A stretch of DNA of 64,000 nt from Microvirga sp. (GTDB lineage: Bacteria > Pseudomonadota > Alphaproteobacteria > Rhizobiales > Beijerinckiaceae). Both the position numbers and the translations under genes were made by a program. Positions 1,760 to 14,124 of this stretch are shown here, in pieces (within the stretch, counting starts at the first letter, position 1; the number at the start of each line of letters is the position of its first letter). The notes beneath the pieces are model-generated. The model made no database searches. It was not told the DNA's origin and was given only the letters and a program-made list of their open reading frames with translations. The DNA lies in assembly GCA_050789065.1 (NCBI GenBank), contig JBOZRS010000045.1:73875-137874 (forward strand). The letters are read 5' to 3'.

Positions 1760-3034
1760 ATGGACAAGACAGCGCCCACCGGGACCAAGCCCTTTTCCCT
1801 CTTCGAGTGGATGCTCGCTGGGCGTTATCTGCGGACGCGCCGGCGGGAGGGGTTTGTCTCGGTGATTGCCGGCTTCTCGTTTCTCGGCATCATGCTCGGG
1901 GTCGCCACCCTGATCGTGGTGCTTTCGGTCATGAACGGGTTTCGCAAGGAACTGCTCGACAAGATCGTCGGTATCAACGGGCACATCTTTGTCGCGCCCA
2001 TCGAGTCGCCGCTGACCGACTATGCCGAAGTCTCGAAGCGGATTGCCGCCATTCCCGGCGTGAAACGGGCGATCCCACTGGTGGAGGGGCAGGCCTTCGG
2101 CTCGTCGCAATACAGCGGCAGCGGCGTACTGGTGCGCGGCATCCGAGGGGAGGATCTCCGGAAAATCGAGCACATCGCCGACAATATCCGCCAGGGCAGT
2201 CTGGACAACTTTGACGAGGGGGAGGGCGTCGTAATCGGGCGGCGTCTGGCTGAGGCCCTGTCCCTTCAGGCCGGCGACACATTCACGCTGATCACGCCCC
2301 GCGGCGCTGCGACCCCGTTTGGCACTGCGCCACGCATCAAAGGGTATCCGGTCAAGGCCGTCTTCGAAATCGGTATGTCGGAATTCGACTCGACCTTCGT
2401 GTTCATGCCGCTGACCGAGGCCCAGAGCTACTTCAACCGCCAGGGCGACGTGCAGCTCATCGAGGTCTACCTCGACAATGCGGACAAGGTGGACGAGGCC
2501 CGCGCCGCCATCGAGGCGGCGGCCGGACGACCGATCCTCATGACGGACTGGCGACAGCGCAACCGCACCTTCTTCGGCGCGCTGGAGGTCGAGCGGAACG
2601 TGATGTTCCTGATCCTTACGCTCATCGTCCTGGTTGCCGCGCTCAACATCATTTCCGGGCTCATCATGCTCGTGAAGGACAAGTCCGAAGACATCGCGAT
2701 CCTGCGCACCATGGGGGCGACGCGCGGGGCGATCATGCGCGTCTTTCTGATCACGGGCGCTTCGATCGGGATCGTCGGCACCATCGCGGGCTTCGTCCTC
2801 GGCCTGCTGCTGGCTCTCAATGTGGAGAGCATCCGCAACTTCATCTCGAAGCTGACGAATACCAATCTCTTCCCGGCGGAACTCTATTTCCTCAGCCGCC
2901 TTCCGGCGGACGTGAACCCGACCGAGGTGGTCACCATTTTGGTCATGGCGATGGTGCTCTCGTTGCTCGCGACCCTTTATCCCTCCTGGCGGGCCGCGAA
3001 GCTCGATCCGGTCGAGGCGTTGCGTTACGGATAA
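1760..3034 (+). CDS. Lipoprotein-releasing ABC transporter permease (LolC/LolE family, FtsX/MacB-type)
   Basis: 424-aa ORF. N-terminal TM, large periplasmic loop, three C-terminal TMs. Followed 4 nt later by lolD. Confidence 0.88.
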   Translation: MDKTAPTGTKPFSLFEWMLAGRYLRTRRREGFVSVIAGFSFLGIMLGVATLIVVLSVMNGFRKELLDKIVGINGHIFVAPIESPLTDYAEVSKRIAAIPGVKRAIPLVEGQAFGSSQYSGSGVLVRGIRGEDLRKIEHIADNIRQGSLDNFDEGEGVVIGRRLAEALSLQAGDTFTLITPRGAATPFGTAPRIKGYPVKAVFEIGMSEFDSTFVFMPLTEAQSYFNRQGDVQLIEVYLDNADKVDEARAAIEAAAGRPILMTDWRQRNRTFFGALEVERNVMFLILTLIVLVAALNIISGLIMLVKDKSEDIAILRTMGATRGAIMRVFLITGASIGIVGTIAGFVLGLLLALNVESIRNFISKLTNTNLFPAELYFLSRLPADVNPTEVVTILVMAMVLSLLATLYPSWRAAKLDPVEALRYG

Positions 3035-3037
3035 AGT

Positions 3038-3733
3038 ATGTCTCCAGGCCAGCCGCAACCCGCCCTTTACCTGTCAAAAGTCGAGCGTCGTTACCCTGAG
3101 GGAGACGGCTTTCTCGAAGTCTTACGCGGCGCGGATCTGGCGATCTGGCCCGGGGAGATCGTGGCGCTCATCGCCCCGTCGGGAACCGGAAAGTCCACGT
3201 TGCTCCATGTGGCGGGACTTCTCGAGAAGCCCGATGGCGGCGAGGTCTATGTCGGATCGAAACCGACCGCCGCCATGGGCGACCAGGAGCGCACGCGGAT
3301 CCGGCGCGAGGAACTGGGCTTCGTGTACCAGTTCCACCACCTCCTGCCCGAGTTCTCGGCTCTGGAGAACGTCGTCATTCCGCAGCTCATTCGCGGACTG
3401 CCCAGGGCCGAGGCCCGGGATCGCGCGACGCAGCTCCTGACCTTTCTCGGGTTGGGCAAGCGCCTCGATCACCGCCCTGGCGAGCTCTCAGGCGGCGAGC
3501 AGCAGCGCGTCGCCATCGCGCGCGCTGTCGCCAATGCGCCGCGCCTGCTTTTGGCAGACGAACCAACCGGCAATCTCGATCCCCAGACCGCCGATCGGGT
3601 CTTCCAGACCTTGGTGGCCATCGTCAGGGCATCCCGTCTCGCGGCGCTGATCGCGACCCACAATATGGATCTTGCGGCCCGCATGGATCGTCGCGTGACC
3701 ATCCGCGACGGGGCGGTCGTGCAACTGCCCTGA
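3038..3733 (+). CDS. lolD: Lipoprotein-releasing system ATP-binding protein
   Basis: Walker A GTGKST, signature LSGGEQQR, Walker B LLLADEP. Operon position after the Lol permease. Confidence 0.9.
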
Positions 3734-3936
3734 ACTTGTCCGGGAAGGGCTGCCGGGATGAGCCCACGCCTTCCGGGTCCTTGCCGCCGTCACTTGCCGA
3801 TCCTTCCGCAAAGACGGCGAGGCGCGCCTTCAGATTGGTGATCCCCTAACGAGCGCGGCCACAACGGCGACAGAGAGGTTCTTCCGCACCGTTAAGCCTT
3901 GGTTGACTCTGTCTTCAGGGAGGGTTCCACACAGGC

Positions 3937-3980
3937 TTTACACAGAACATCTAAGGAACAAAAATGAACATGTCAGGAAC
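3937..3980 (+). promoter_or_regulatory. Putative SOS-regulated promoter: TTTACA-N17-AAAAAT overlapped by two tandem LexA boxes (GAAC-N7-GAAC)
   Basis: GAAC at 3945, 3956, 3966 and 3977. Spacings are N7, N6, N7, giving box 1 at 3945-3959 and box 2 at 3966-3980. Candidate -35 TTTACA at 3937-3942 and -10 AAAAAT at 3960-3965. Confidence 0.6.
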
Positions 3981-3994
3981 ATGGAGATCCCAAG

Positions 3995-4096
3995 ATGCTT
4001 CGCACCATCATCGAGACCGCCGCTGAAATCACTTCCCTCGTCATGTTCGGGTCCGCCGTGGCAATCTGGGCCCTGGTTCTTTCTCCTGTCGCCTGA
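3995..4096 (+). CDS. Unannotated 33-aa hydrophobic peptide (MLRTIIETAAEITSLVMFGSAVAIWALVLSPVA)
   Basis: ATG at 3995 sits 8 nt after GGAG (3983-3986); TGA at 4094-4096. About 70% G/C at third codon positions, and one predicted TM helix. Below the size cut-off of the ORF track. Confidence 0.5.
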   Translation: MLRTIIETAAEITSLVMFGSAVAIWALVLSPVA

Positions 4097-4216
4097 TACC
4101 CGCAATATACACTCAATCACCGGGATTCACAGGAACGTAGTCCTCGCGGGTCCCGGTAACCGTCTCTTAGCGGAGAATCGTGGCAGTATGTGCGCCGTTT
4201 GTGAGTAAAGAGTTTC

Positions 4217-7200
4217 ATGGCGCACATTCTTCAAGACGTCGGTTTCGTGCATCTGCACGTTCACTCCTCGTACTCGCTGCTCGAGGGAGCGCTGAAGATC
4301 GCGCAATTGGCGAAGCTGGCTGCGGCCGACAAACAGCCGGCACTCGCGCTCACTGATACGAACAATCTTTTCGGCGCCCTCGAATTTTCCGAGAAGCTCG
4401 CCGGCTCGGGCATGCAGCCCATTGCCGGCGTGCAGCTCTCGGTGTGTTTCGAGGAGGCCGATCCGGTGGCGCGGGTCGTTCCGCTCCCTGCCAACATCGT
4501 CCTCCTCGCCCAGACCGAGGAAGGCTACCGTAATCTCATGCGGCTCGTGAGCCGCGCTTATTTCGACGTGCCGCTCGGCGAGAATCCCAGAGTCGCGGCC
4601 CCGGTTCTGCTCAACCATAGCGAAGGATTGATCGCGCTGACCGGCGGCTTCTCGGGGCCTCTCGACAGCGCTCTGCGGAACGGCGGTCGCCAGGATCTGG
4701 CACAGACAAGGCTCGACATCCTCAAGATCGCCTTCGGCCATCAGCTCTATGTCGAGATCCAGCGCCATGGGCTCGACGAGGAGCGCATGGTCGAGGGGGA
4801 ACTCCTCGCGCTCGCGGACCGCAACGGCCTGCCCATCGTGGCCACCAATGAGCCCTTCTTCTCGTCATCGAAGGATTACGAGGCGCATGATGCGCTTCTG
4901 GCCATTGCAGAGGGCCGAATCGTCTCGGACGAGAACCGCCGCCGCCTGTCCCCGCAGCACGAATTCAAGACACGCCAGCAGATGGTGGAGCTGTTCGCCG
5001 ATCTGCCGGACGCCCTGCAGGCAAGCGTCGAGATCGCCATGCGCTGCTCGGCCCGGGTGAGGACCCGAAAGCCGATTCTGCCGAATTTCGGCACCGGCCC
5101 CGATGCCTCTTCTCTGGACGAAGGCGAGGAACTGAAGCGCCAGGCGGAGGAAGGGCTGCTCAAGCGTCTGGCCGCACATGGTCCGGCACCCGGGCTGACC
5201 GAGCAGGATTATCACGATCGTCTCGCCTACGAGATCGGCATCATCCAGAAGATGAAGTTCCCGGGCTACTTCCTGATCGTGTCCGACTTCATCAAATGGG
5301 CGAAGGACCACAACATTCCGGTCGGCCCGGGCCGCGGATCGGGCGCGGGCTCGCTCGTGGCCTATGCGCTCACCATCACGGATCTCGATCCTCTGCGTTT
5401 TGCGCTGCTCTTCGAGCGCTTCCTCAACCCGGAACGCGTCTCGATGCCCGACTTCGATATCGACTTCTGCGTCGATAACCGTGAGCGCGTCATCGAATAC
5501 GTGCAGCAGCGCTATGGCGAGGAGCAGGTCGCGCAGATCATCACCTTCGGTACGCTCCTCGCCCGAGGCGTGATGCGCGACGTCGGCCGGGTGCTCGAAA
5601 TGCCTTACGGGCAGGTCGACAAGCTCACGAAACTCGTGCCGCAGAATCCGGCCAATCCGGTGACCCTGGCGCAGGCCATCGAAGGTGAACCGAGGCTTCA
5701 GGCCGCCATCGACGAGGAGCCCGTCGTCAAGCGCATGCTCGACATCGCGCAGAAGCTCGAGGGCCTCCACCGCCACGCCTCGACCCACGCGGCGGGCGTC
5801 GTGATCGGCGACCGCCCCCTGCAGGAACTGGTTCCGCTCTATCGAGATCCGAAAACCGGCATGCGGGTGACCCAGTTCAACATGAAATGGGTCGAGCAGG
5901 CCGGCCTCGTGAAGTTCGACTTCCTGGGTCTGAAGACGCTCACCGTGCTGCGCACGGCGGTCGATCTCATCAAGCGCAAGGGCATCGACATCGATCTCTC
6001 GGCGCTGCCGCTCGATGACCGCAAGACCTACGAGATGCTCCGGCGCGGCGAAACGGTCGGCGTGTTCCAGGTGGAATCGGTGGGCATGCGCAAAGCCCTC
6101 GTCGAAATGGAGACCGACCGCTTCGAGGACATCATCGCGCTCGTGGCCCTCTATCGCCCGGGTCCGATGGCCAACATCCCGGTGTACTGCGCCCGCAAGC
6201 TCGGCAAGGACGAGCATAATAAGAAGGACTGGTATCCTCACGAGAAACTGGAGCCCATCCTCCGCGAGACGTTCGGCATCATCGTCTACCAGGAGCAGGT
6301 GATGGAGGTGGCGAAAGTCCTCTCCGGCTACTCGCTCGGCGACGCCGACTTGCTGCGTCGCGCGATGGGCAAGAAGATCAAGGCCGAGATGGATGCCCAG
6401 CGCGAGCGTTTCGTCTCGGGCGCGGCCAAGGACGGCCTCGACCAAGCCAAGGCGAACGAGATCTTCGACCTCCTCGCCAAGTTCGCGGATTACGGCTTCA
6501 ACAAGAGCCACGCGGCCGCTTACGCCCTGGTCGCATTCCAGACCGCCTATCTGAAGGCCAATTACCCGGTCGAGTTCCTGGCCGCGTCCATGACGCTCGA
6601 CCTCGACAACACGGACAAACTCTCGGAATTTCGCCGCGAGGCGCAGCGGCTCGGCTTCAAGGTGATTCCGCCCTCGATCAACCGCTCGGGCGTCGTGTTC
6701 GACGTGGTCTATGACGAGGATGGGAAAGGTTCGATCCTTTATGCGCTCGCGGCCGTCAAGGGCGTCGGCCGGCAGGCCATCGAAAGCGTGATCGAGGCGA
6801 GGGGGGACACGCCCTTCAAGGATCTCGCCGACTTCGCCCGGCGCATCAATCCGCGCATGCTCAACAAGCGCACGCTCGAAAACCTGATCGCGGCGGGTGC
6901 CTTCGACGAGCTGGAGCCGGATCGGGCCAAGGCCTGCGCCTCGATCGACGCCATGATGAGCCTCGCGCAGCAGGCGTACGAGGCTGCCAATGGCGGCATG
7001 ATCGACATGTTCGGCGGCATGGCCTCGGCGGACGTGCAATTGCGGATCCCGGCGTACGATCCGTGGCCCGCCGCCGAGAAGCTTCAGCGGGAATACGACG
7101 CCGTCGGCTTCTTCCTGTCGGGACATCCCCTCGACGAGTATGGTGACCTGCTCAAGAAGCTTCGGGTCCAGACCTGGGTCGATTTCTGTCGCTCGGTGAA

Positions 7201-7690
7201 GGCCGGCAACTCGGTGGGCCGCGTCGCCGCGACCGTACTCGACCGCCAGGAGCGCCGCACCAAGACCGGCAATAAGATGGGCATTCTGACCCTCTCGGAT
7301 CAGACCGGGCAGTTCGAGGCGATCATCTTCTCGGAGGGGCTGCAGCGTCTCCGTGACGTTCTCGAGCCGGGTGCTGCCGTCGTGCTCATGCTGCAGGCCG
7401 GAATCGAAGGAGAAGAGGTGCGGGCGCGCATCGGCATGGCCGAGCCTCTGGATGAGGCCATCGCCAAGCACCAGAAGGGCATGCGGATATTCCTGCGCGA
7501 CGAGCGGCCTATCAGCAGCGTCTACGAGCGGCTGAGAGCGCGTGGCGAGGGAGAGGTCTCCCTCGTCCTCATCCTCGACGACGGCGACCGCGAAGTCGAG
7601 GTCAAGCTCCCGGGCAAGTACATGGCCACGCCCCAGATCGCCGGTGCGCTGCGCGCCGTGCCGGGGGTCGTGGACGTGCACATGAATTAG
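4217..7690 (+). CDS. dnaE: DNA polymerase III alpha subunit
   Basis: 1157-aa ORF. PHP-domain start FVHLHVHSSYSLLEGA, polymerase core, OB-fold C-terminus. Confidence 0.97.
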   Translation: MAHILQDVGFVHLHVHSSYSLLEGALKIAQLAKLAAADKQPALALTDTNNLFGALEFSEKLAGSGMQPIAGVQLSVCFEEADPVARVVPLPANIVLLAQTEEGYRNLMRLVSRAYFDVPLGENPRVAAPVLLNHSEGLIALTGGFSGPLDSALRNGGRQDLAQTRLDILKIAFGHQLYVEIQRHGLDEERMVEGELLALADRNGLPIVATNEPFFSSSKDYEAHDALLAIAEGRIVSDENRRRLSPQHEFKTRQQMVELFADLPDALQASVEIAMRCSARVRTRKPILPNFGTGPDASSLDEGEELKRQAEEGLLKRLAAHGPAPGLTEQDYHDRLAYEIGIIQKMKFPGYFLIVSDFIKWAKDHNIPVGPGRGSGAGSLVAYALTITDLDPLRFALLFERFLNPERVSMPDFDIDFCVDNRERVIEYVQQRYGEEQVAQIITFGTLLARGVMRDVGRVLEMPYGQVDKLTKLVPQNPANPVTLAQAIEGEPRLQAAIDEEPVVKRMLDIAQKLEGLHRHASTHAAGVVIGDRPLQELVPLYRDPKTGMRVTQFNMKWVEQAGLVKFDFLGLKTLTVLRTAVDLIKRKGIDIDLSALPLDDRKTYEMLRRGETVGVFQVESVGMRKALVEMETDRFEDIIALVALYRPGPMANIPVYCARKLGKDEHNKKDWYPHEKLEPILRETFGIIVYQEQVMEVAKVLSGYSLGDADLLRRAMGKKIKAEMDAQRERFVSGAAKDGLDQAKANEIFDLLAKFADYGFNKSHAAAYALVAFQTAYLKANYPVEFLAASMTLDLDNTDKLSEFRREAQRLGFKVIPPSINRSGVVFDVVYDEDGKGSILYALAAVKGVGRQAIESVIEARGDTPFKDLADFARRINPRMLNKRTLENLIAAGAFDELEPDRAKACASIDAMMSLAQQAYEAANGGMIDMFGGMASADVQLRIPAYDPWPAAEKLQREYDAVGFFLSGHPLDEYGDLLKKLRVQTWVDFCRSVKAGNSVGRVAATVLDRQERRTKTGNKMGILTLSDQTGQFEAIIFSEGLQRLRDVLEPGAAVVLMLQAGIEGEEVRARIGMAEPLDEAIAKHQKGMRIFLRDERPISSVYERLRARGEGEVSLVLILDDGDREVEVKLPGKYMATPQIAGALRAVPGVVDVHMN

Positions 7691-7921: not shown

Positions 7922-10042
7922 CTAACCGGCCCTGAGCAGCTTGATCGCGGAATCGCGCTCGAACAGGTAGAGCAGCACGCGCAGGGCCTGGCCTCGTTCT
8001 GTCACGAGGTCGGGGTCGCGGTCCACGATCAGGCGGGCATCGTCCCGCGCGGCTGCGAGCAGATCGCCATCCACTTCGAGACGGGCGAGCTTGAAGCCGG
8101 GAAGGCCTGACTGACGGGTGCCCAGAACCTCGCCTTCGCCGCGAAGACGAAGGTCCTCCTCCGCAATCCGGAATCCGTCCTCGGTCTGGCGCATCATCTC
8201 GAGGCGCGCCTGGGCAACCTGCCCGAGGGGGCCTTTGTAGACGAGAAGGCAGGTCGAGGAGCGCGAGCCGCGCCCGATACGCCCGCGCAACTGGTGCAGC
8301 TGGGCCAGGCCGAACCGTTCCGCGTGCTCGATCACCATGATGGTGGCATTGGGCACGTCCACGCCCACCTCAATCACGGTCGTGGAGACGAGGATCTTGG
8401 TCTCGCCGCGCGAGAACCGCTCCATGGCGGCGTCCTTGTCCTTGCCGGCCAGCTTGCCATGCACGAGACCGACCTGCTCGCCGAAGATTCCCTTCAACTG
8501 CTCGTAGCGCTCCTCGGCAGCGGCGAGATCGATGGTTTCGGATTCGCCCACGAGGGGGCAGACCCAGTAGATCTGGTCGCCATTGGCCATGGCCCGCCCG
8601 ATCCCGCCGATGACCTCGTCGAGGCGCTCGATGGAGATCAGCTTCGTCGCAATGGGCTTGCGGCCTGCGGGCTTCTCGCTCAGGACCGAGACGTCCATGT
8701 CGCCGAAATAGGTGAGCGCCAGGGTTCGCGGAATCGGCGTCGCCGTCATGACGAGAATATCGACCGCCTCGCCCTTGGACCCAAGCGCCAGACGCTGGTG
8801 GACGCCGAAACGGTGCTGCTCATCGACCACCGCGACCCCGAGATCATTGAAGGCGACGCCCTCCTGGAACAGCGCATGGGTCCCGACGGCGATCTGGATG
8901 CTGCCGTCCGCCAATCCTTCGAGGACCGTGCGGCGCGCAACGCCTTTCTCCCGTCCCGTCAGGAGTGCAATCGTCAAGCCTGCAGCCTCGGCCATGGGAG
9001 CGATGCGCTCGTAGTGCTGGCGGGCCAGGATCTCGGTCGGGGCCATCATGGCGGCCTGACGCCCTGCCTCGATGGCGCTCGCCATGGTGAGAAGCCCGAC
9101 CACGGTCTTGCCCGAGCCCACGTCACCCTGCAGGAGCCGCAGCATCTTCTTGTCGGACACGAGATCACGGCGGATGTCCTCGATGGCCAGAGCCTGCGAT
9201 GCCGTGAGCCCGAAGGGCAGGGCGCTCTTCAGTCGCTCGACCAGATGGCCGTCCCCTGCATTCACCCGGCCGGGCAGCCGCCGCATGCGGCTCCTGACCA
9301 GGGCCAGGGCGAGCTGGGAGGCCAACAGTTCATCATAGGCTAGGCGGCGTCGTGGCGCTGACTTCGCGAGAGCTTCCTCGGAGAGCTGCGCCGCATTGTC
9401 GGGCCTATGGAGGGTCGAGAGCGCCGTTCCGAAATCAGGCAGGGCATTGCGGCTTAGCCAAGCCGGATCCTGCCATTCGGGCAGATGCGGAACCCGTTCC
9501 AGGGCTGCGCCGATATAGCGGCCCACCATGCGCGACGAGAGGCCCTCTGTCAGCCCATAGACCGCCTCCACGGCCGGAAGGTTCTCGATCCCGCGTTCAT
9601 CGAGGATGCGGTCCGGGTGAACCATCTGGCGCGTCGCGTCCCACAGCTCGATCTTGCCCGAGACGTAGCGGCGCTCCCCGACAGGCAGGAGTTTTTCCAG
9701 GCGAGCCTTCTGCCCGTTGAAGAACACGAGCACGACATCCCCCGTCTCGTCCTCGACGAGGATGCGGTAGGGGGCGCGGCGGCCTGGAGGCGGGGGCCGG
9801 TGGGCCACGACCGTGACCGACAGCGTGACCGGCTCGCCGATGGGCGCATCGGCAATCGAGCCCTTCATCTCGCGGGACACGCCGCTGCTCGGCAGATGAA
9901 ACAGCAGATCCATGACGCGCGTGGGGCGTCCGGGCTCGCCGAGGAGCCGATCCAGGAGGGGCGCGATCTTGGGACCCACCCCTGGCAGCGTGGCAGCCGG
10001 CGCAAAAAGCGGGTCGAGAATGGAAGGACGCAATGACATCAA
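7922..10042 (-). CDS. recG: ATP-dependent DNA helicase RecG
   Basis: 706-aa ORF. Wedge domain plus SF2 helicase motifs GDVGSGKTVV and VVDEQHRFG. Confidence 0.95.
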   Translation of the reverse strand: MMSLRPSILDPLFAPAATLPGVGPKIAPLLDRLLGEPGRPTRVMDLLFHLPSSGVSREMKGSIADAPIGEPVTLSVTVVAHRPPPPGRRAPYRILVEDETGDVVLVFFNGQKARLEKLLPVGERRYVSGKIELWDATRQMVHPDRILDERGIENLPAVEAVYGLTEGLSSRMVGRYIGAALERVPHLPEWQDPAWLSRNALPDFGTALSTLHRPDNAAQLSEEALAKSAPRRRLAYDELLASQLALALVRSRMRRLPGRVNAGDGHLVERLKSALPFGLTASQALAIEDIRRDLVSDKKMLRLLQGDVGSGKTVVGLLTMASAIEAGRQAAMMAPTEILARQHYERIAPMAEAAGLTIALLTGREKGVARRTVLEGLADGSIQIAVGTHALFQEGVAFNDLGVAVVDEQHRFGVHQRLALGSKGEAVDILVMTATPIPRTLALTYFGDMDVSVLSEKPAGRKPIATKLISIERLDEVIGGIGRAMANGDQIYWVCPLVGESETIDLAAAEERYEQLKGIFGEQVGLVHGKLAGKDKDAAMERFSRGETKILVSTTVIEVGVDVPNATIMVIEHAERFGLAQLHQLRGRIGRGSRSSTCLLVYKGPLGQVAQARLEMMRQTEDGFRIAEEDLRLRGEGEVLGTRQSGLPGFKLARLEVDGDLLAAARDDARLIVDRDPDLVTERGQALRVLLYLFERDSAIKLLRAG

Positions 10043-10433: not shown

Positions 10434-10528
10434 TCATTCCCGGCGGTCCGCAGGTCGGGAAGGGGATCCGCACAGACCTGCTGCGGCTATGGATTCCCTC
10501 CTCCGCAACGCTCCGCCCGGGAATGACG
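10434..10528. repeat. Second full copy (about 95 bp) of the palindromic element seen at 7817-7913
   Basis: Runs GTCATTCCCGGCGGTCCGCAGGTCGGGAAGGGGATCC...TGGATTCCC...CCCGGGAATGAC. Terminal inverted repeat GTCATTCCCGG / CCGGGAATGAC. Confidence 0.7.
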
Positions 10529-10602
10529 CTTGAAAACCTTTGAATAATCCACGAACCGGGCCGAAAGGCCCGCGTTCTCCATTGATTGACCGACAATCCG
10601 CC

Positions 10603-13600
10603 ATGAAGCCTGCACTGATCCGCGCTCTCGATGCCCTGAAGAAGGGCCAAGGTCTGACGCTGTCCAGCGTTCCGGACGGCTTTGACGCGCTCGCCGTCGC
10701 CGATCTGGCGCGCGGCCTGTCCGGGCAGATCGAAGGTCCGGCGGTCCTCGTGCACGTCGCCCGCGACGGCCAGAGACAGCAGAATTTCGCCAACAGTCTC
10801 GGCTTCATCGCGCCGGAGATCGAAATCCTCACGTTTCCTGCATGGGACTGCCAGCCTTACGACCGGGTCTCGCCCAATGCGGCGATCACCGCGCAGCGCA
10901 TGACGACCCTGGCGCGGCTTGCCCGCTCGAAGACCTCCGAGGACAAGCCGCGTATCCTCTCGACCACCGTGAACGCCCTCGTCCAGCGGGTGCCCCCGAA
11001 GGCCCGTATCGCGGCCGAGACCTTTTCGGCCGCTCCCGGAAACGTGGTGGATACGAACCAGCTCATCAACTGGCTTGAGACCAACGGCTTCCTGCGGACC
11101 GGAACGGTGCGGGACACTGGAGAATACGCCGTGCGCGGCGGCATCATCGACCTGTATCCGGCGGGGCTGCCCAACCCGGTACGCCTCGACTTCTTCGGCG
11201 ATGCCCTGGAGTCGATCCGCTCCTTCGACCCGGAGACTCAGCGCACCGTCGGCACCCTGCGCGCGCTCGATCTCGTCCCCATGAGCGAGGTCCAGCTGAC
11301 CACCGAGAGCATCAGGCGGTTCCGCCAGTCATACGTGGCTGCCTTCGGGGCCCCGACCCGTGACGACCGGCTCTATGAAGCGATCAGCGAGGGACGGCGT
11401 TATCCGGGCCTGGAACATTGGCTGCCGCTCTTCCACGATCACCTCGATACGCTTCTCGACTATGTGCCCGGCATTCCCGTCGTCTTCGACGCGCTGGCCG
11501 ACGACGCGGCCGCCGAGCGCCTGTCGCAGGTTAAGGATTATTACGATGCGCGGCGTGAGGGGATGGGCCAGAACCAGCCCGGCGTCGCTCCCTATCGGCC
11601 TCTGCCGTCGGAGGCGCTTTATTTCAAGCCGGACGAGTGGGCCGAGCGCACCGCGGCCTTGCCGCTCGCGCGGTTGACACCCTTCGCGATTCCGGAATCG
11701 GAGGGGCGCCTCGTCATTGATTGCGGCGCGCGCCGGGGGCGCAACTTTATCGCAGAGCGGGCAGACGAGAACGCGAATGTCTTCGAGGCCGTCATTCGCC
11801 ACATCCGCGACCTGCAGGCCTCGAAGCACCGGGTGATCCTCGGCGCGTGGTCGGAGGGCTCGCGCGAACGCCTGTGCCACGTGCTGCAGGATCATGATCT
11901 TCGCCAGACCAAGCCGATTTCCCGGCTCTCGGAAGCCATGGCGTATCCCCGGAACGAGGTTCCGGTGGCGGTGTGGAGCCTTGAGTCAGGGTTCGAAACG
12001 GACGATATGGCGGTCATTAGCGAGCAGGACATCCTGGGCGACCGGCTTGTGCGCCAGAAGCGCAAGTCCAAGCGTCCGCAGGATTTTCTGACCGAGGTAG
12101 CGGCCCTCACGCCCGGGGATCTCGTGGTTCATGTGGATCACGGGATCGGCCGCTTCGAGGGGCTTAAGACCATCGAGGCGGCGGGCGCCCCACACGACTG
12201 TCTTGAGCTGCATTACGCCGGTGGCGACCGGCTCTTCCTGCCCGTCGAGAACATCGAACTCCTGACCCGTTACGGATCGGAGGAGACGGAAGTCCAGCTC
12301 GACAAGCTCGGCGGCGGAGCCTGGCAGGCGCGCAAGGCGCGCATGAAGCAGCGCATCCGCGAGATGGCCGGCGCGCTCATGAAGATCGCCGCCGCCCGTA
12401 TTCTCAAGGAAGCACCGCGCCTGACGCCCCCGGAAGGGCTCTACGACGAATTCGCCGCCCGCTTCCCCTATGACGAGACCGAGGACCAGCTGAACGCGAT
12501 CGAGGCGGTGCTGGACGACATGGCCTCAGGCCGTCCGATGGACCGGCTCGTCTGCGGCGATGTCGGCTTCGGCAAGACGGAGGTGGCGCTTCGCGCCGCT
12601 TTCGTGGCGGCCATGAGCGGGAAGCAGGTGGCTGTCGTGGTGCCGACCACCCTGCTGGCCCGTCAGCACTACAAGACCTTCTGCGAGCGCTTCCGTGGTC
12701 TTCCGCTCAACGTGGCGCAGGCCTCCCGATTCGTGCCCGCTGCCGAGATGAAGAGGGTCAAGGAGGGCCTTTCCGACGGGTCGGTGGATATCGTCATCGG
12801 CACCCACGCAGTCCTGGGCAAGTCGATCAAGTTCAAGGATCTCGGCCTTATCATCGTCGACGAGGAGCAGCATTTCGGCGTCACCCACAAGGAGCGCCTC
12901 AAGGAGCTGCGGGCCGAGGTTCACGTGTTGACTCTGTCAGCCACGCCGATTCCGCGCACTCTGCAACTGGCGCTGACCGGAGTGCGGGAGCTCTCACTCA
13001 TTACGACGCCGCCGGTGGACCGCCTTGCGGTGCGAACCTTCATCACCCCCTTCGATCCGCTCCTGATCCGCGAAGCTCTGCTTCGCGAGCGTTACAGGGG
13101 AGGGCAGGCCTTCTACGTGGTGCCGCGCCTCGACGATCTGGGCGAGGTGAAGGCCTTCCTCGACAAGGAAGTACCCGAGGCGAAGGTCGCGGTCGCGCAT
13201 GGTCAGATGGCCGCAGGCCAGCTCGAGGACGTGATGACGGCCTTCTACGAGGGCCAGTACGACATCCTCCTCTCCACCACCATCGTGGAGTCGGGCCTGG
13301 ATATTCCGACGGCCAACACGCTCATCGTCCACCGGGCCGACATGTTCGGTCTGGCCCAGCTCTACCAGCTGCGCGGCCGGGTCGGGCGTTCGAAGACCCG
13401 CGCCTACGCCCTGTTCACCGTGCCGGCCAACAAGCCGATGACGGTTCAGGCAGAGCGCCGCCTCAAGGTTCTGCAGACCCTCGATACTCTGGGCGCGGGC
13501 TTCCAGCTGGCTTCCCACGACCTCGACATCCGCGGCGCGGGCAACCTGCTGGGCGAGGAGCAGTCGGGCCACATCAAGGAGGTCGGTTACGAACTCTATC

Positions 13601-14124
13601 AGCAGATGCTGGAGGAGGCCGTGGCTCAGCTCAAAGCCGGCATCGAGGAGCCGGCGGAGGATCAGTGGTCGCCCACCATCGCGGTCGGAGCGCCGGTCAT
13701 GATCCCGGAGAGCTACATCTCCGATCTGCAGCTGCGATTGGGGCTGTATCGCCGCCTGTCGACCTTCGAGGCGGATGGCGAGATCGACGCTTTCCGGGCA
13801 GAACTCATCGATCGGTTCGGGCCAGTCCCCTCCGAGGTCGATCAGCTGCTGAGGATCATGGCAATCAAGGTTCTCTGCCGCAGGGCGAACGTGGAGAAGG
13901 TGGACGGCGGGCCAAAGGGCATCATCATCTCCTTCCGCGACAACGCCTTCGCCAATCCGACCGGTCTCATCTCCTATGTGTCCGAGCAGGCCTCTTTCGC
14001 CAAGGTTCGCCCCGACATGAAGATCGTGTTCGTCCGCGACGTGGAGACGCCTGACGAGCGCATCAAGGCCGCGACGTCCATCCTGCGCAATCTCGTGCGG
14101 ATCGCCGAGAAGAAGGCCGCATGA
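10603..14124 (+). CDS. mfd: Transcription-repair coupling factor
   Basis: Helicase motifs GDVGFGKTEVALRAAF and IVDEEQHFGV, plus UvrB-homology N-terminus and TRCF C-terminus. Start taken at MKPALIRAL; the longest ORF begins at 10540, inside the repeat element. Confidence 0.93.
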   Translation: MKPALIRALDALKKGQGLTLSSVPDGFDALAVADLARGLSGQIEGPAVLVHVARDGQRQQNFANSLGFIAPEIEILTFPAWDCQPYDRVSPNAAITAQRMTTLARLARSKTSEDKPRILSTTVNALVQRVPPKARIAAETFSAAPGNVVDTNQLINWLETNGFLRTGTVRDTGEYAVRGGIIDLYPAGLPNPVRLDFFGDALESIRSFDPETQRTVGTLRALDLVPMSEVQLTTESIRRFRQSYVAAFGAPTRDDRLYEAISEGRRYPGLEHWLPLFHDHLDTLLDYVPGIPVVFDALADDAAAERLSQVKDYYDARREGMGQNQPGVAPYRPLPSEALYFKPDEWAERTAALPLARLTPFAIPESEGRLVIDCGARRGRNFIAERADENANVFEAVIRHIRDLQASKHRVILGAWSEGSRERLCHVLQDHDLRQTKPISRLSEAMAYPRNEVPVAVWSLESGFETDDMAVISEQDILGDRLVRQKRKSKRPQDFLTEVAALTPGDLVVHVDHGIGRFEGLKTIEAAGAPHDCLELHYAGGDRLFLPVENIELLTRYGSEETEVQLDKLGGGAWQARKARMKQRIREMAGALMKIAAARILKEAPRLTPPEGLYDEFAARFPYDETEDQLNAIEAVLDDMASGRPMDRLVCGDVGFGKTEVALRAAFVAAMSGKQVAVVVPTTLLARQHYKTFCERFRGLPLNVAQASRFVPAAEMKRVKEGLSDGSVDIVIGTHAVLGKSIKFKDLGLIIVDEEQHFGVTHKERLKELRAEVHVLTLSATPIPRTLQLALTGVRELSLITTPPVDRLAVRTFITPFDPLLIREALLRERYRGGQAFYVVPRLDDLGEVKAFLDKEVPEAKVAVAHGQMAAGQLEDVMTAFYEGQYDILLSTTIVESGLDIPTANTLIVHRADMFGLAQLYQLRGRVGRSKTRAYALFTVPANKPMTVQAERRLKVLQTLDTLGAGFQLASHDLDIRGAGNLLGEEQSGHIKEVGYELYQQMLEEAVAQLKAGIEEPAEDQWSPTIAVGAPVMIPESYISDLQLRLGLYRRLSTFEADGEIDAFRAELIDRFGPVPSEVDQLLRIMAIKVLCRRANVEKVDGGPKGIIISFRDNAFANPTGLISYVSEQASFAKVRPDMKIVFVRDVETPDERIKAATSILRNLVRIAEKKAA

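Follow-up and report, generated by a model that had tools for sequence, protein, structure and literature searches.

What kind of gene lies immediately upstream of dnaE in Microvirga, and does the SOS response control it? The question is raised by a stretch of 64,000 nucleotides (nt) from Microvirga sp. (contig JBOZRS010000045.1, positions 73,875 to 137,874; hereafter "the window"), in which a 33-codon open reading frame (ORF) preceded by two putative binding sites for the SOS repressor LexA is found shortly before the gene for the DNA polymerase III alpha subunit. A preliminary description of this DNA had viewed the ORF as an unannotated membrane peptide gene and perhaps an uncharacterised DNA damage effector, with SidA of Caulobacter and TisB of Escherichia coli as possible precedents. 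SOS-induced division inhibitors are clade-specific and hard to find by homology. The observations described below indicate that the ORF is a real, conserved gene for a hydrophobic single-helix peptide under purifying selection, and SOS regulation together with a division inhibitor role of the SidA type appears to be the most likely interpretation. On balance, we lean toward considering the peptide gene and its two predicted LexA sites the Microvirga counterpart of the sidA-dnaE SOS unit of Caulobacter.

Homologous regions were collected by a genome scan with the DnaE N-terminus, which yielded 80 loci from Microvirga and more distant Hyphomicrobiales; alignments were made with 51 distinct Microvirga upstream sequences and 55 distinct copies of the 33-codon ORF. 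The reading frame is open in all 55 copies, and none of the other five frames is free of stop codons throughout the set. Entropy is 1.02 at the third codon position of the ORF copies compared with 0.45 and 0.23 elsewhere in the codon, and the ratio of nonsynonymous to synonymous changes (pN/pS) is 0.31 in frame; the two alternative frames of the same strand give 1.19 and 2.40. Third positions rich in G and C had been pointed out in the preliminary description, and 24 of the 33 codons of the ORF do end in G or C. AlphaFold2, run with an alignment of the family, models the peptide as one continuous helix (residues 2–29) with a predicted local distance difference test (pLDDT) score of 94.9, and residues 12–33 can be read from the sequence as a hydrophobic stretch. 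The open frame, the variation mainly at third positions, the low pN/pS in frame and the helix model together indicate that the ORF is genuine and encodes a hydrophobic peptide with a single helix. The transmembrane helix attributed to it earlier corresponds to a single helix in the model, and its insertion into the membrane stands as a prediction; with its 33 residues, the product is a very small single-helix peptide as SidA is. The term "unannotated" was, however, incorrect: the exact peptide is already recorded as "hypothetical protein" in both NCBI and JGI. Pfam and NCBIfam returned no match for the peptide and four of its relatives, even at E ≤ 10.

The putative LexA sites are formed by GAAC tetramers at 3945, 3956, 3966 and 3977, which can be read as two GAAC-N7-GAAC sequences (Table 1). 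The LexA operator of Alphaproteobacteria such as Rhodobacter, Rhizobium and Caulobacter likewise consists of two GTTC tetramers in direct repeat, 7 nt apart; a tandem pair in a fixed 21-nt register, in contrast, is a local feature. The register, measured between box starts, amounts to about two helical turns, and both boxes carry on the other strand the extended ...ATGTTC half found in most Caulobacter boxes. To score the sites we used a position weight matrix built from 32 Caulobacter boxes supported by chromatin immunoprecipitation (ChIP). The boxes that make up the matrix score 14.0–24.4 bits (median, 19.0), so that both sites in the window score like bound Caulobacter sites. When both strands of the 64 kb were scanned, boxes 1 and 2 were the top two matches, the third-ranked match scored 15.1 bits, and the mean maximum in shuffled windows was 14.8 bits. 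The exact 36-nt pattern of four tetramers is unique within the window; with up to three mismatches, three matches are found versus 0.43 expected. Lone GAAC-N7-GAAC sequences are not rare (three in the window versus 1.8 expected). Other matrix matches (39245, 31730, 58871 and 59218; 11–15 bits) fall in the chance range and are located in or beside genes for transport, a sugar kinase and a glycosyltransferase.

Location of the boxes is also relevant. Box 1 lies in the spacer of a predicted promoter and box 2 over its predicted start, a placement able to block RNA polymerase: the first base of box 2 is directly 3' of the −10 hexamer, and its last base is 14 nt from the ATG of the peptide gene. 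The promoter, TTTACA-17-AAAAAT, is the sole promoter-like site found in 3600–4400. Positions 2 (A) and 6 (T) of the −10 hexamer are each kept in all but one of the Microvirga sequences listed, and the remaining positions vary. The leader is short, about 23 nt by prediction. On re-reading, every coordinate that the preliminary description had given for tetramers, promoter, Shine-Dalgarno sequence, ORF and distance to dnaE was correct, and its proposal of boxes overlying a plausible promoter gains weight from the fact that both the layout and the promoter are conserved in the 51 Microvirga sequences. The view that the two sites fit the alphaproteobacterial LexA operator and overlap a conserved promoter of the sigma-70 type is thus supported at the level of sequence motifs.

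Conservation extends to the boxes themselves. The four GAAC tetramers are conserved or nearly so in the 51 Microvirga sequences, and their flanks drift. Most Microvirga loci carry both exact boxes, about 270 and 249 nt before dnaE, and the spacing from start to start is exactly 21 nt in every Microvirga locus listed with both. Hence, comparison with relatives, which had been suggested as a check, turned out in favor of both elements: the ORF remains open and the boxes are kept across the genus. Co-occurrence of peptide and box was examined in 79 loci with enough upstream sequence, taking into account LexA matches of at least 13 bits within 900 nt before dnaE. The peptide is present in 70 loci, and a LexA match, usually shortly before the ORF, accompanies it in every one. 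Neither a detectable peptide nor a box is found in four loci (L052, L054, L066 and L074, Methylorubrum among them). Five loci have a box and no peptide detected by a hidden Markov model (HMM): one belongs to Rhodoplanes, and harbors a divergent 42-aa hydrophobic ORF; the other four belong to Salinarimonas (L055, L059, L061 and L062), and a single strong GTTC-oriented box is found in them 150–390 nt before dnaE. In the Salinarimonas and box-less loci, the peptide could have been lost in individual lineages or have diverged beyond detection.

The peptide gene is adjacent to dnaE and on the same strand in 69 of the 70 loci that carry it. In L036 (Microvirga solisilvae), the whole cassette, made of upstream element, promoter, boxes and 33-aa ORF, is inverted and intact, about −230 to −420 from dnaE, and can therefore be viewed as an autonomous unit. 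The inverted cassette now converges on lolD, and provides a natural uncoupling of the peptide from dnaE. Altogether, the co-occurrence counts and the L036 arrangement indicate that LexA control goes with the peptide and not with dnaE, which must have expression of its own. A different arrangement is seen in L067–L080 (Xanthobacteraceae, Rhodoplanes, Bradyrhizobiaceae and Phreatobacter), where the boxes have opposite orientations and lie 250–700 nt before dnaE: a GAAC-N7-GAAC sequence is followed by a GTTC-N7-GTTC sequence that starts 16–19 nt later, and the order is reversed in Phreatobacter, where the two are 31 nt apart. The peptide gene can be 180–550 nt from dnaE in this set. Hence, the operator layout is remodelled in these loci and the peptide is retained.

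An arrangement of this kind has been documented in Caulobacter. A 2025 PLoS Biology study of the Caulobacter SOS regulon places sidA (ccna_02004) next to dnaE (ccna_02003), and both genes are members of the regulon. According to the supplements of that study, LexA boxes GTTCACAAGATGTTC and TTTCTTGTTTTGTTC are located in the sidA promoter, 49 and 15 nt from the coding sequence; the sidA-dnaE transcription unit is listed as 3557 bp; and exposure to mitomycin C for 40 min gives log2 fold changes of 3.42 for sidA and 1.18 (about 2.3-fold) for dnaE. In a strain with lexA and sidA deleted, the log2 fold change of dnaE is 1.45. SidA is a 29-aa inner-membrane division inhibitor that acts on FtsW/FtsN: by binding them it stops constriction, an effect that ftsW or ftsI alleles suppress, and TM7 is its predicted binding place.

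The Caulobacter locus was recovered by scanning metagenome contigs for the two published boxes in GAAC orientation, and 12 loci were obtained. In one of them, L082, the order is GAACATCTTGTGAAC, 19 nt, GAACAAAACAAGAAA, 15 nt containing GGAGG, the ATG of a 29-aa peptide, and dnaE 25 nt past the stop codon. Between the sidA boxes of L082, the sequence GAACGAAAAGGGAAT (2656–2670) reads GAAC-N7-GAAT and is one base short of a third box. The 29-aa peptide is named "cell division inhibitor SidA" by NCBI in many Caulobacter genomes, and the SidA name is confined to proteins of Caulobacter and Caulobacteraceae among the NCBI matches listed. The original description of SidA is said to have found relatives only in close relatives of Caulobacter.

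Likenesses between the two units are multiple. Each has two LexA boxes with GAAC on the coding strand, of which the one nearer the gene stops 15 nt (14 nt in the window) short of the start codon; in each, a Shine-Dalgarno sequence follows, and dnaE is located 3' on the same strand. The window thus shows several features of a sidA-type gene: a position directly upstream of dnaE, in the same direction, and boxes close to the start, as judged by their motifs. The peptides are single helices of 29–33 residues with an M-[ILV]-R start, E7, a central S and an F. Differences are found as well: the gap to dnaE is 25 nt in Caulobacter and 120 nt in Microvirga, SidA is four residues shorter, and a conserved FGSAVAIWAL core is present in the Microvirga peptide only. 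Comparison with SidA, which had been made by analogy, therefore goes deeper than an analogy: Caulobacter sidA lies directly before dnaE behind two LexA boxes, and both genes belong to the SOS regulon. For the same reason, "uncharacterised effector" overstated the novelty of the peptide, which is the positional counterpart of the characterised SidA.

Whether the peptides are also related by descent was examined with sequence profiles. With the profile of the diverse family, hhalign gave P = 6e-4 against SidA, and 2 of 400 column-shuffled controls scored as high; with the profile of a Bradyrhizobium-type subfamily, P was 1.1e-4 over 25 ungapped columns with 36% identity, and 1 of 400 shuffles scored as high. 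Column shuffling keeps both composition and conservation. One Bradyrhizobium-type peptide scored 11.2 bits against a SidA HMM, a value that none of 3000 shuffles reached. Microvirga, Bradyrhizobium-type, Phreatobacter and SidA peptides share the pattern M-x-R...E..A.L.S...F...M....AQ, and in a joint alignment of three groups with a single one-residue gap, the S and F columns are invariant and M1, R3 and A26 are nearly so. The sequence similarity between the Microvirga peptide family and SidA is, all in all, weak. In our opinion, common descent with SidA becomes likely once profile similarity is weighed along with what the peptides have in common in position, size, predicted fold and regulation.

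Several observations weigh against this relationship and against the equivalence of the two units. BLASTP produced no alignment between the Microvirga peptide and SidA, and the former scored −0.8 bits against the SidA HMM. A screen of all six-frame segments from the 80 loci (10,955 in total) with the SidA HMM left the syntenic peptides at 5.5–6 bits with E values of 5–8, which is noise level; because this screen did not separate them from noise, sequence-proven homology is not claimed. Short hydrophobic helices converge easily, and the case for homology rests largely on position and regulation. As for regulation, the matrix derives from Caulobacter rather than from Microvirga, and lexA lies outside the window. 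In addition, box starts are 34 nt apart in Caulobacter and 21 nt apart in the window, and the mixed orientation of boxes in Bradyrhizobium-type loci means that the layout varies between groups.

The peptide family proved to be large. A profile made with the Microvirga peptide and the syntenic peptides of other loci, with the query padded in frame to 41 columns, retrieved 1967 proteins at E ≤ 1 among 5.8 billion; the matches listed are mostly 30–36 aa long, have no Pfam domain, and are called "hypothetical" if named. Exhaustive search of representatives at 50% identity gave 550 clusters at E ≤ 1e-3. Family peptides have 28–36 aa and no family name, and S14, F18 and W25 are among the residues conserved across families. 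A second large subfamily, with consensus MLRTFVEEAAALTSIVLFVGMVAVWAQVIPQL, includes Bradyrhizobium proteins and extends to loci of Xanthobacteraceae and Rhodoplanes. These Bradyrhizobium-type peptides, 32-aa hypothetical proteins, were found by the Microvirga profile with E about 1e-11, and members exist in several hundred Bradyrhizobium-associated contigs. Their loci differ from the window in having one GAAC-oriented and one GTTC-oriented box. The Phreatobacter peptide is MIRSFIEDAAALVALGLFTGMLTVWAQALNG. Family-matching "proteins" of 50–170 aa (P0249–P0387) were not taken as fusions: they are probably miscalls caused by upstream in-frame starts or by stop loss or frameshift, with unrelated low-complexity tails. 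Such entries illustrate how poorly genes of this tiny size are called.

A member of the family has been detected experimentally. In Sinorhizobium meliloti, translation of the 28-aa sORF25 (MADFVRDLAAFASMSLFIVSISVIALGL) in the 5' untranslated region of dnaE1 was detected by Ribo-seq, and its authors proposed a role as an upstream ORF (uORF); SOS, LexA and a link to SidA are nowhere mentioned in their paper. The sORF25 peptide scored 12.4 bits against the Bradyrhizobium-type HMM, and 3 of 3000 shuffles scored as high. Both sORF25 and the 32-aa Bradyrhizobium proteins share the family of the Microvirga peptide and its position before dnaE; descriptions of them go no further than a possible uORF in one case and hypothetical proteins in the other. 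No paper connecting SidA to Rhizobiales, Bradyrhizobium or Sinorhizobium turned up in a literature search, and the literature searched contained no statement of this cassette across Hyphomicrobiales, nor of sORF25 or the Bradyrhizobium proteins belonging to it. A broader speculation, for which we see even chances, is that SidA is one branch of an old alphaproteobacterial family of 28–36-aa peptides encoded behind LexA boxes before dnaE, and that the family predates the split between Caulobacterales and Hyphomicrobiales.

How might such a unit work? Two LexA dimers bound to operators 21 bp apart would occlude the sigma-70-type promoter. Upon DNA damage, active RecA would trigger self-cleavage of LexA and the promoter would open; the mRNA, with its short leader, would then be translated into a single-pass inner-membrane peptide of 33 residues. 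By analogy with SidA, the peptide may bind the late divisome (FtsW/FtsN) and delay cytokinesis until repair is complete. As no terminator-like site was detected after the ORF in a scan of 3600–4400, some transcripts probably run on into dnaE, as the Caulobacter data suggest, and such read-through, which we consider plausible, might raise the level of the polymerase III alpha subunit modestly; dnaE would additionally be expressed independently of LexA. What this scheme infers is that LexA binds, that damage induces the promoter, that the peptide enters the membrane and acts on the divisome, and that transcription reads through into dnaE. Its logic recalls that of YneA, ChiZ, SosA, DivS and DidA, damage-induced small membrane proteins that block late division, several of them by acting on FtsW. 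These are, however, larger, often have extracytoplasmic domains (LysM), and are unrelated in sequence, regulators and operators.

Other explanations of the locus deserve consideration. If the peptide were induced by SOS but of separate origin from SidA, with another membrane role and a position reached by convergence, one would expect what is actually observed in direct comparison: no similarity between the Microvirga peptide and SidA, an unbiased SidA HMM screen without significance, and a box spacing and orientation that vary between clades. Convergence would have to explain, nevertheless, why genes for 29–33-aa helices occupy the same place before dnaE, behind LexA boxes, in two orders, a coincidence for which descent is more parsimonious; the peptides also form a graded series from Microvirga through the Bradyrhizobium type and Phreatobacter to SidA, and the profile score exceeds those of 399 of 400 composition-matched controls. 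We therefore regard convergence as unlikely. A different possibility is that the LexA-controlled promoter serves mainly to raise dnaE after damage, the ORF being a uORF or leader that tunes dnaE as suggested for sORF25. The nearly constant adjacency to dnaE and the lack of a terminator suit this idea, as do the proposal made by the sORF25 authors and the data from Caulobacter, where dnaE responds to SOS induction and shares a listed transcription unit with sidA. A leader that acts by being translated, on the other hand, does not need to preserve amino acids, and the pN/pS value and the conserved S14, F18 and W25 indicate that they are preserved; the 120-nt spacer contains no attenuator or conserved structure to which translation might be coupled; the L036 cassette stays intact though it points away from dnaE; dnaE lacks LexA boxes in the four peptide-less loci; and SidA itself works as a protein. 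A leader function is, in consequence, quite improbable.

TisB, the other precedent that had been offered, turned out to be a poor one. In size, hydrophobicity, single helix and predicted LexA control, the peptide does resemble an SOS-induced membrane-damaging toxin of the TisB/DinQ type, which would lower the proton-motive force and promote dormancy, and the E. coli systems TisB/IstR-1 and DinQ/AgrB also place genes for hydrophobic peptides of some 30 aa under LexA sites. Their operators are of another type, however, and the traits of a type I toxin do not appear in consensus-level tests of the Microvirga locus: the opposite strand of 3600–4400 yielded no promoter-like site from which an antisense or divergent small RNA might arise, conserved RNA structure for an antitoxin or a leader was not detected, an Rfam scan of 3000–5000 gave no match at E ≤ 1, the short predicted leader is not a long structured one, and no sequence relation was found. 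Locus, box placement and size match sidA-dnaE instead, and the weak profile similarity favors SidA. Furthermore, the presence of all 70 peptide loci at dnaE and the spread in Bradyrhizobium point to a vertically inherited housekeeping locus and not to an addiction module, so that a toxin seems very improbable. As for the trivial explanation that tetramers and ORF arose by chance in an intergenic region richer in AT, the frequency of single GAAC-N7-GAAC sequences in 64 kb would be compatible with it; yet the tandem pattern is unique, its sites are the best two matrix matches of the window, and the conservation of boxes, promoter and ORF across dozens of species refutes chance, which retains practically no probability.

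The spacer between the peptide gene and dnaE is the place where a separate control of dnaE might reside. Its downstream part (Table 1) reads AGAATCGTGGCA.TATG(C/T)G.GCC...GAGTA.AG and includes a GANTC site at 4175; the core of the block, GGAATCG.GCAG (GGAATCGGGCAG in L036), is still found before dnaE where the cassette is inverted. This block is probably the LexA-independent promoter, leader or translation initiation region of dnaE itself, although no consensus promoter was detected in 4170–4216. An attenuator or terminator in the spacer was considered and dropped because no significant or shared RNA fold exists: the fold z-score of 4094–4220 is −0.45, and no consensus pair was found across 14 species.

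Upstream of the promoter, an element that belongs to the peptide cassette is found about 30 nt 5' of the −35 hexamer, and accompanies the inverted cassette in L036. Its TTAA and TTGAC(TC) halves are kept in most of the 51 Microvirga sequences, and the spacer between them varies. In L005, L011, L013, L020 and L043, CGATTCACC replaces the GTTGACTC half; L013 retains a TTAAG half. The element resembles the CtrA-type TTAA-N7-TTAAC box, and is possibly a cell-cycle input. GANTC sequences, the sites of CcrM-type methylation, occur at 3905, 4124 and 4175 (−312, −93 and −42 from the dnaE ATG), and their positions are constant in almost all Microvirga loci; in the window as a whole, GANTC is under-represented (158 versus 224 expected). 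Such conservation suggests that cell-cycle or methylation signals act on the peptide promoter as well as on the dnaE control region.

As regards the neighborhood, the 90%-identity cluster of the window DnaE contains Microvirga proteins that bear the name DNA polymerase III subunit alpha, and the LolD cluster likewise consists of proteins from Microvirga (Methylobacteriaceae, Hyphomicrobiales). After dnaE come recG (7922–10042, minus strand) and mfd (10540–14124, plus strand), which encodes the transcription-repair coupling factor; the neighborhood of dnaE is thus rich in replication and repair genes. A weak match to the four-tetramer pattern, with three mismatches, is found at 10521–10556 and overlaps the first candidate start of the mfd ORF (TTG, 10540).

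Table 1. Features of the dnaE upstream region and adjacent genes; positions are those of the window.
Feature	Position	Strand	Remarks
proS, lolC/E, lolD	upstream of peptide gene		
Upstream element TTAA-N7-TTGACTC	3892..3909	+	GANTC at 3905–3909; belongs to the peptide cassette
−35 hexamer TTTACA	3937..3942	+	invariant in 51/51 distinct Microvirga upstream sequences
LexA box 1 (predicted), GAACATCTAAGGAAC; other strand, GTTCCTTAGATGTTC	3945..3959	+	18.4 bits, rank 2 in window; fills the promoter spacer
−10 hexamer AAAAAT	3960..3965	+	between the two boxes; 17-nt spacer from −35
LexA box 2 (predicted), GAACATGTCAGGAAC; other strand, GTTCCTGACATGTTC	3966..3980	+	19.5 bits, rank 1 in window; covers the expected transcription start
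Shine-Dalgarno sequence GGAG	3983..3986	+	8 nt before the ATG; kept in 49/51 aligned Microvirga sequences
33-codon ORF, MLRTIIETAAEITSLVMFGSAVAIWALVLSPVA	3995..4096	+	ATG at 3995; SidA-like single-helix peptide (membrane location predicted)
Spacer between peptide gene and dnaE	4097..4216	+	120 nt from the end of the peptide stop codon to the dnaE ATG; 4097–4169 variable, 4170–4216 conserved
dnaE, DNA polymerase III alpha subunit	4217..7690	+	1157 aa; Pfam PHP, DNA_pol3_alpha, finger, HHH_6, OB

The kind of mechanism proposed here is not new, as the two-box sidA-dnaE unit was already documented in Caulobacter. The locus provides, however, a concrete candidate for the missing SOS division inhibitor of soil and symbiotic bacteria such as Microvirga, Bradyrhizobium, Sinorhizobium and their relatives. 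On this basis, a function can also be suggested for hundreds of "hypothetical" ORFs of about 30 aa and for a translated small ORF once read as a dnaE leader; genes of this class can be recovered through their position and regulation where sequence search fails. If the hypothesis of an old family is true, Microvirga, Bradyrhizobium, Xanthobacteraceae, Phreatobacter and Sinorhizobium (with sORF25) would possess an unrecognised SOS checkpoint that targets FtsW/FtsN, and the fixed linkage to dnaE could be functional: a block of cell division would be induced together with extra replicative polymerase.

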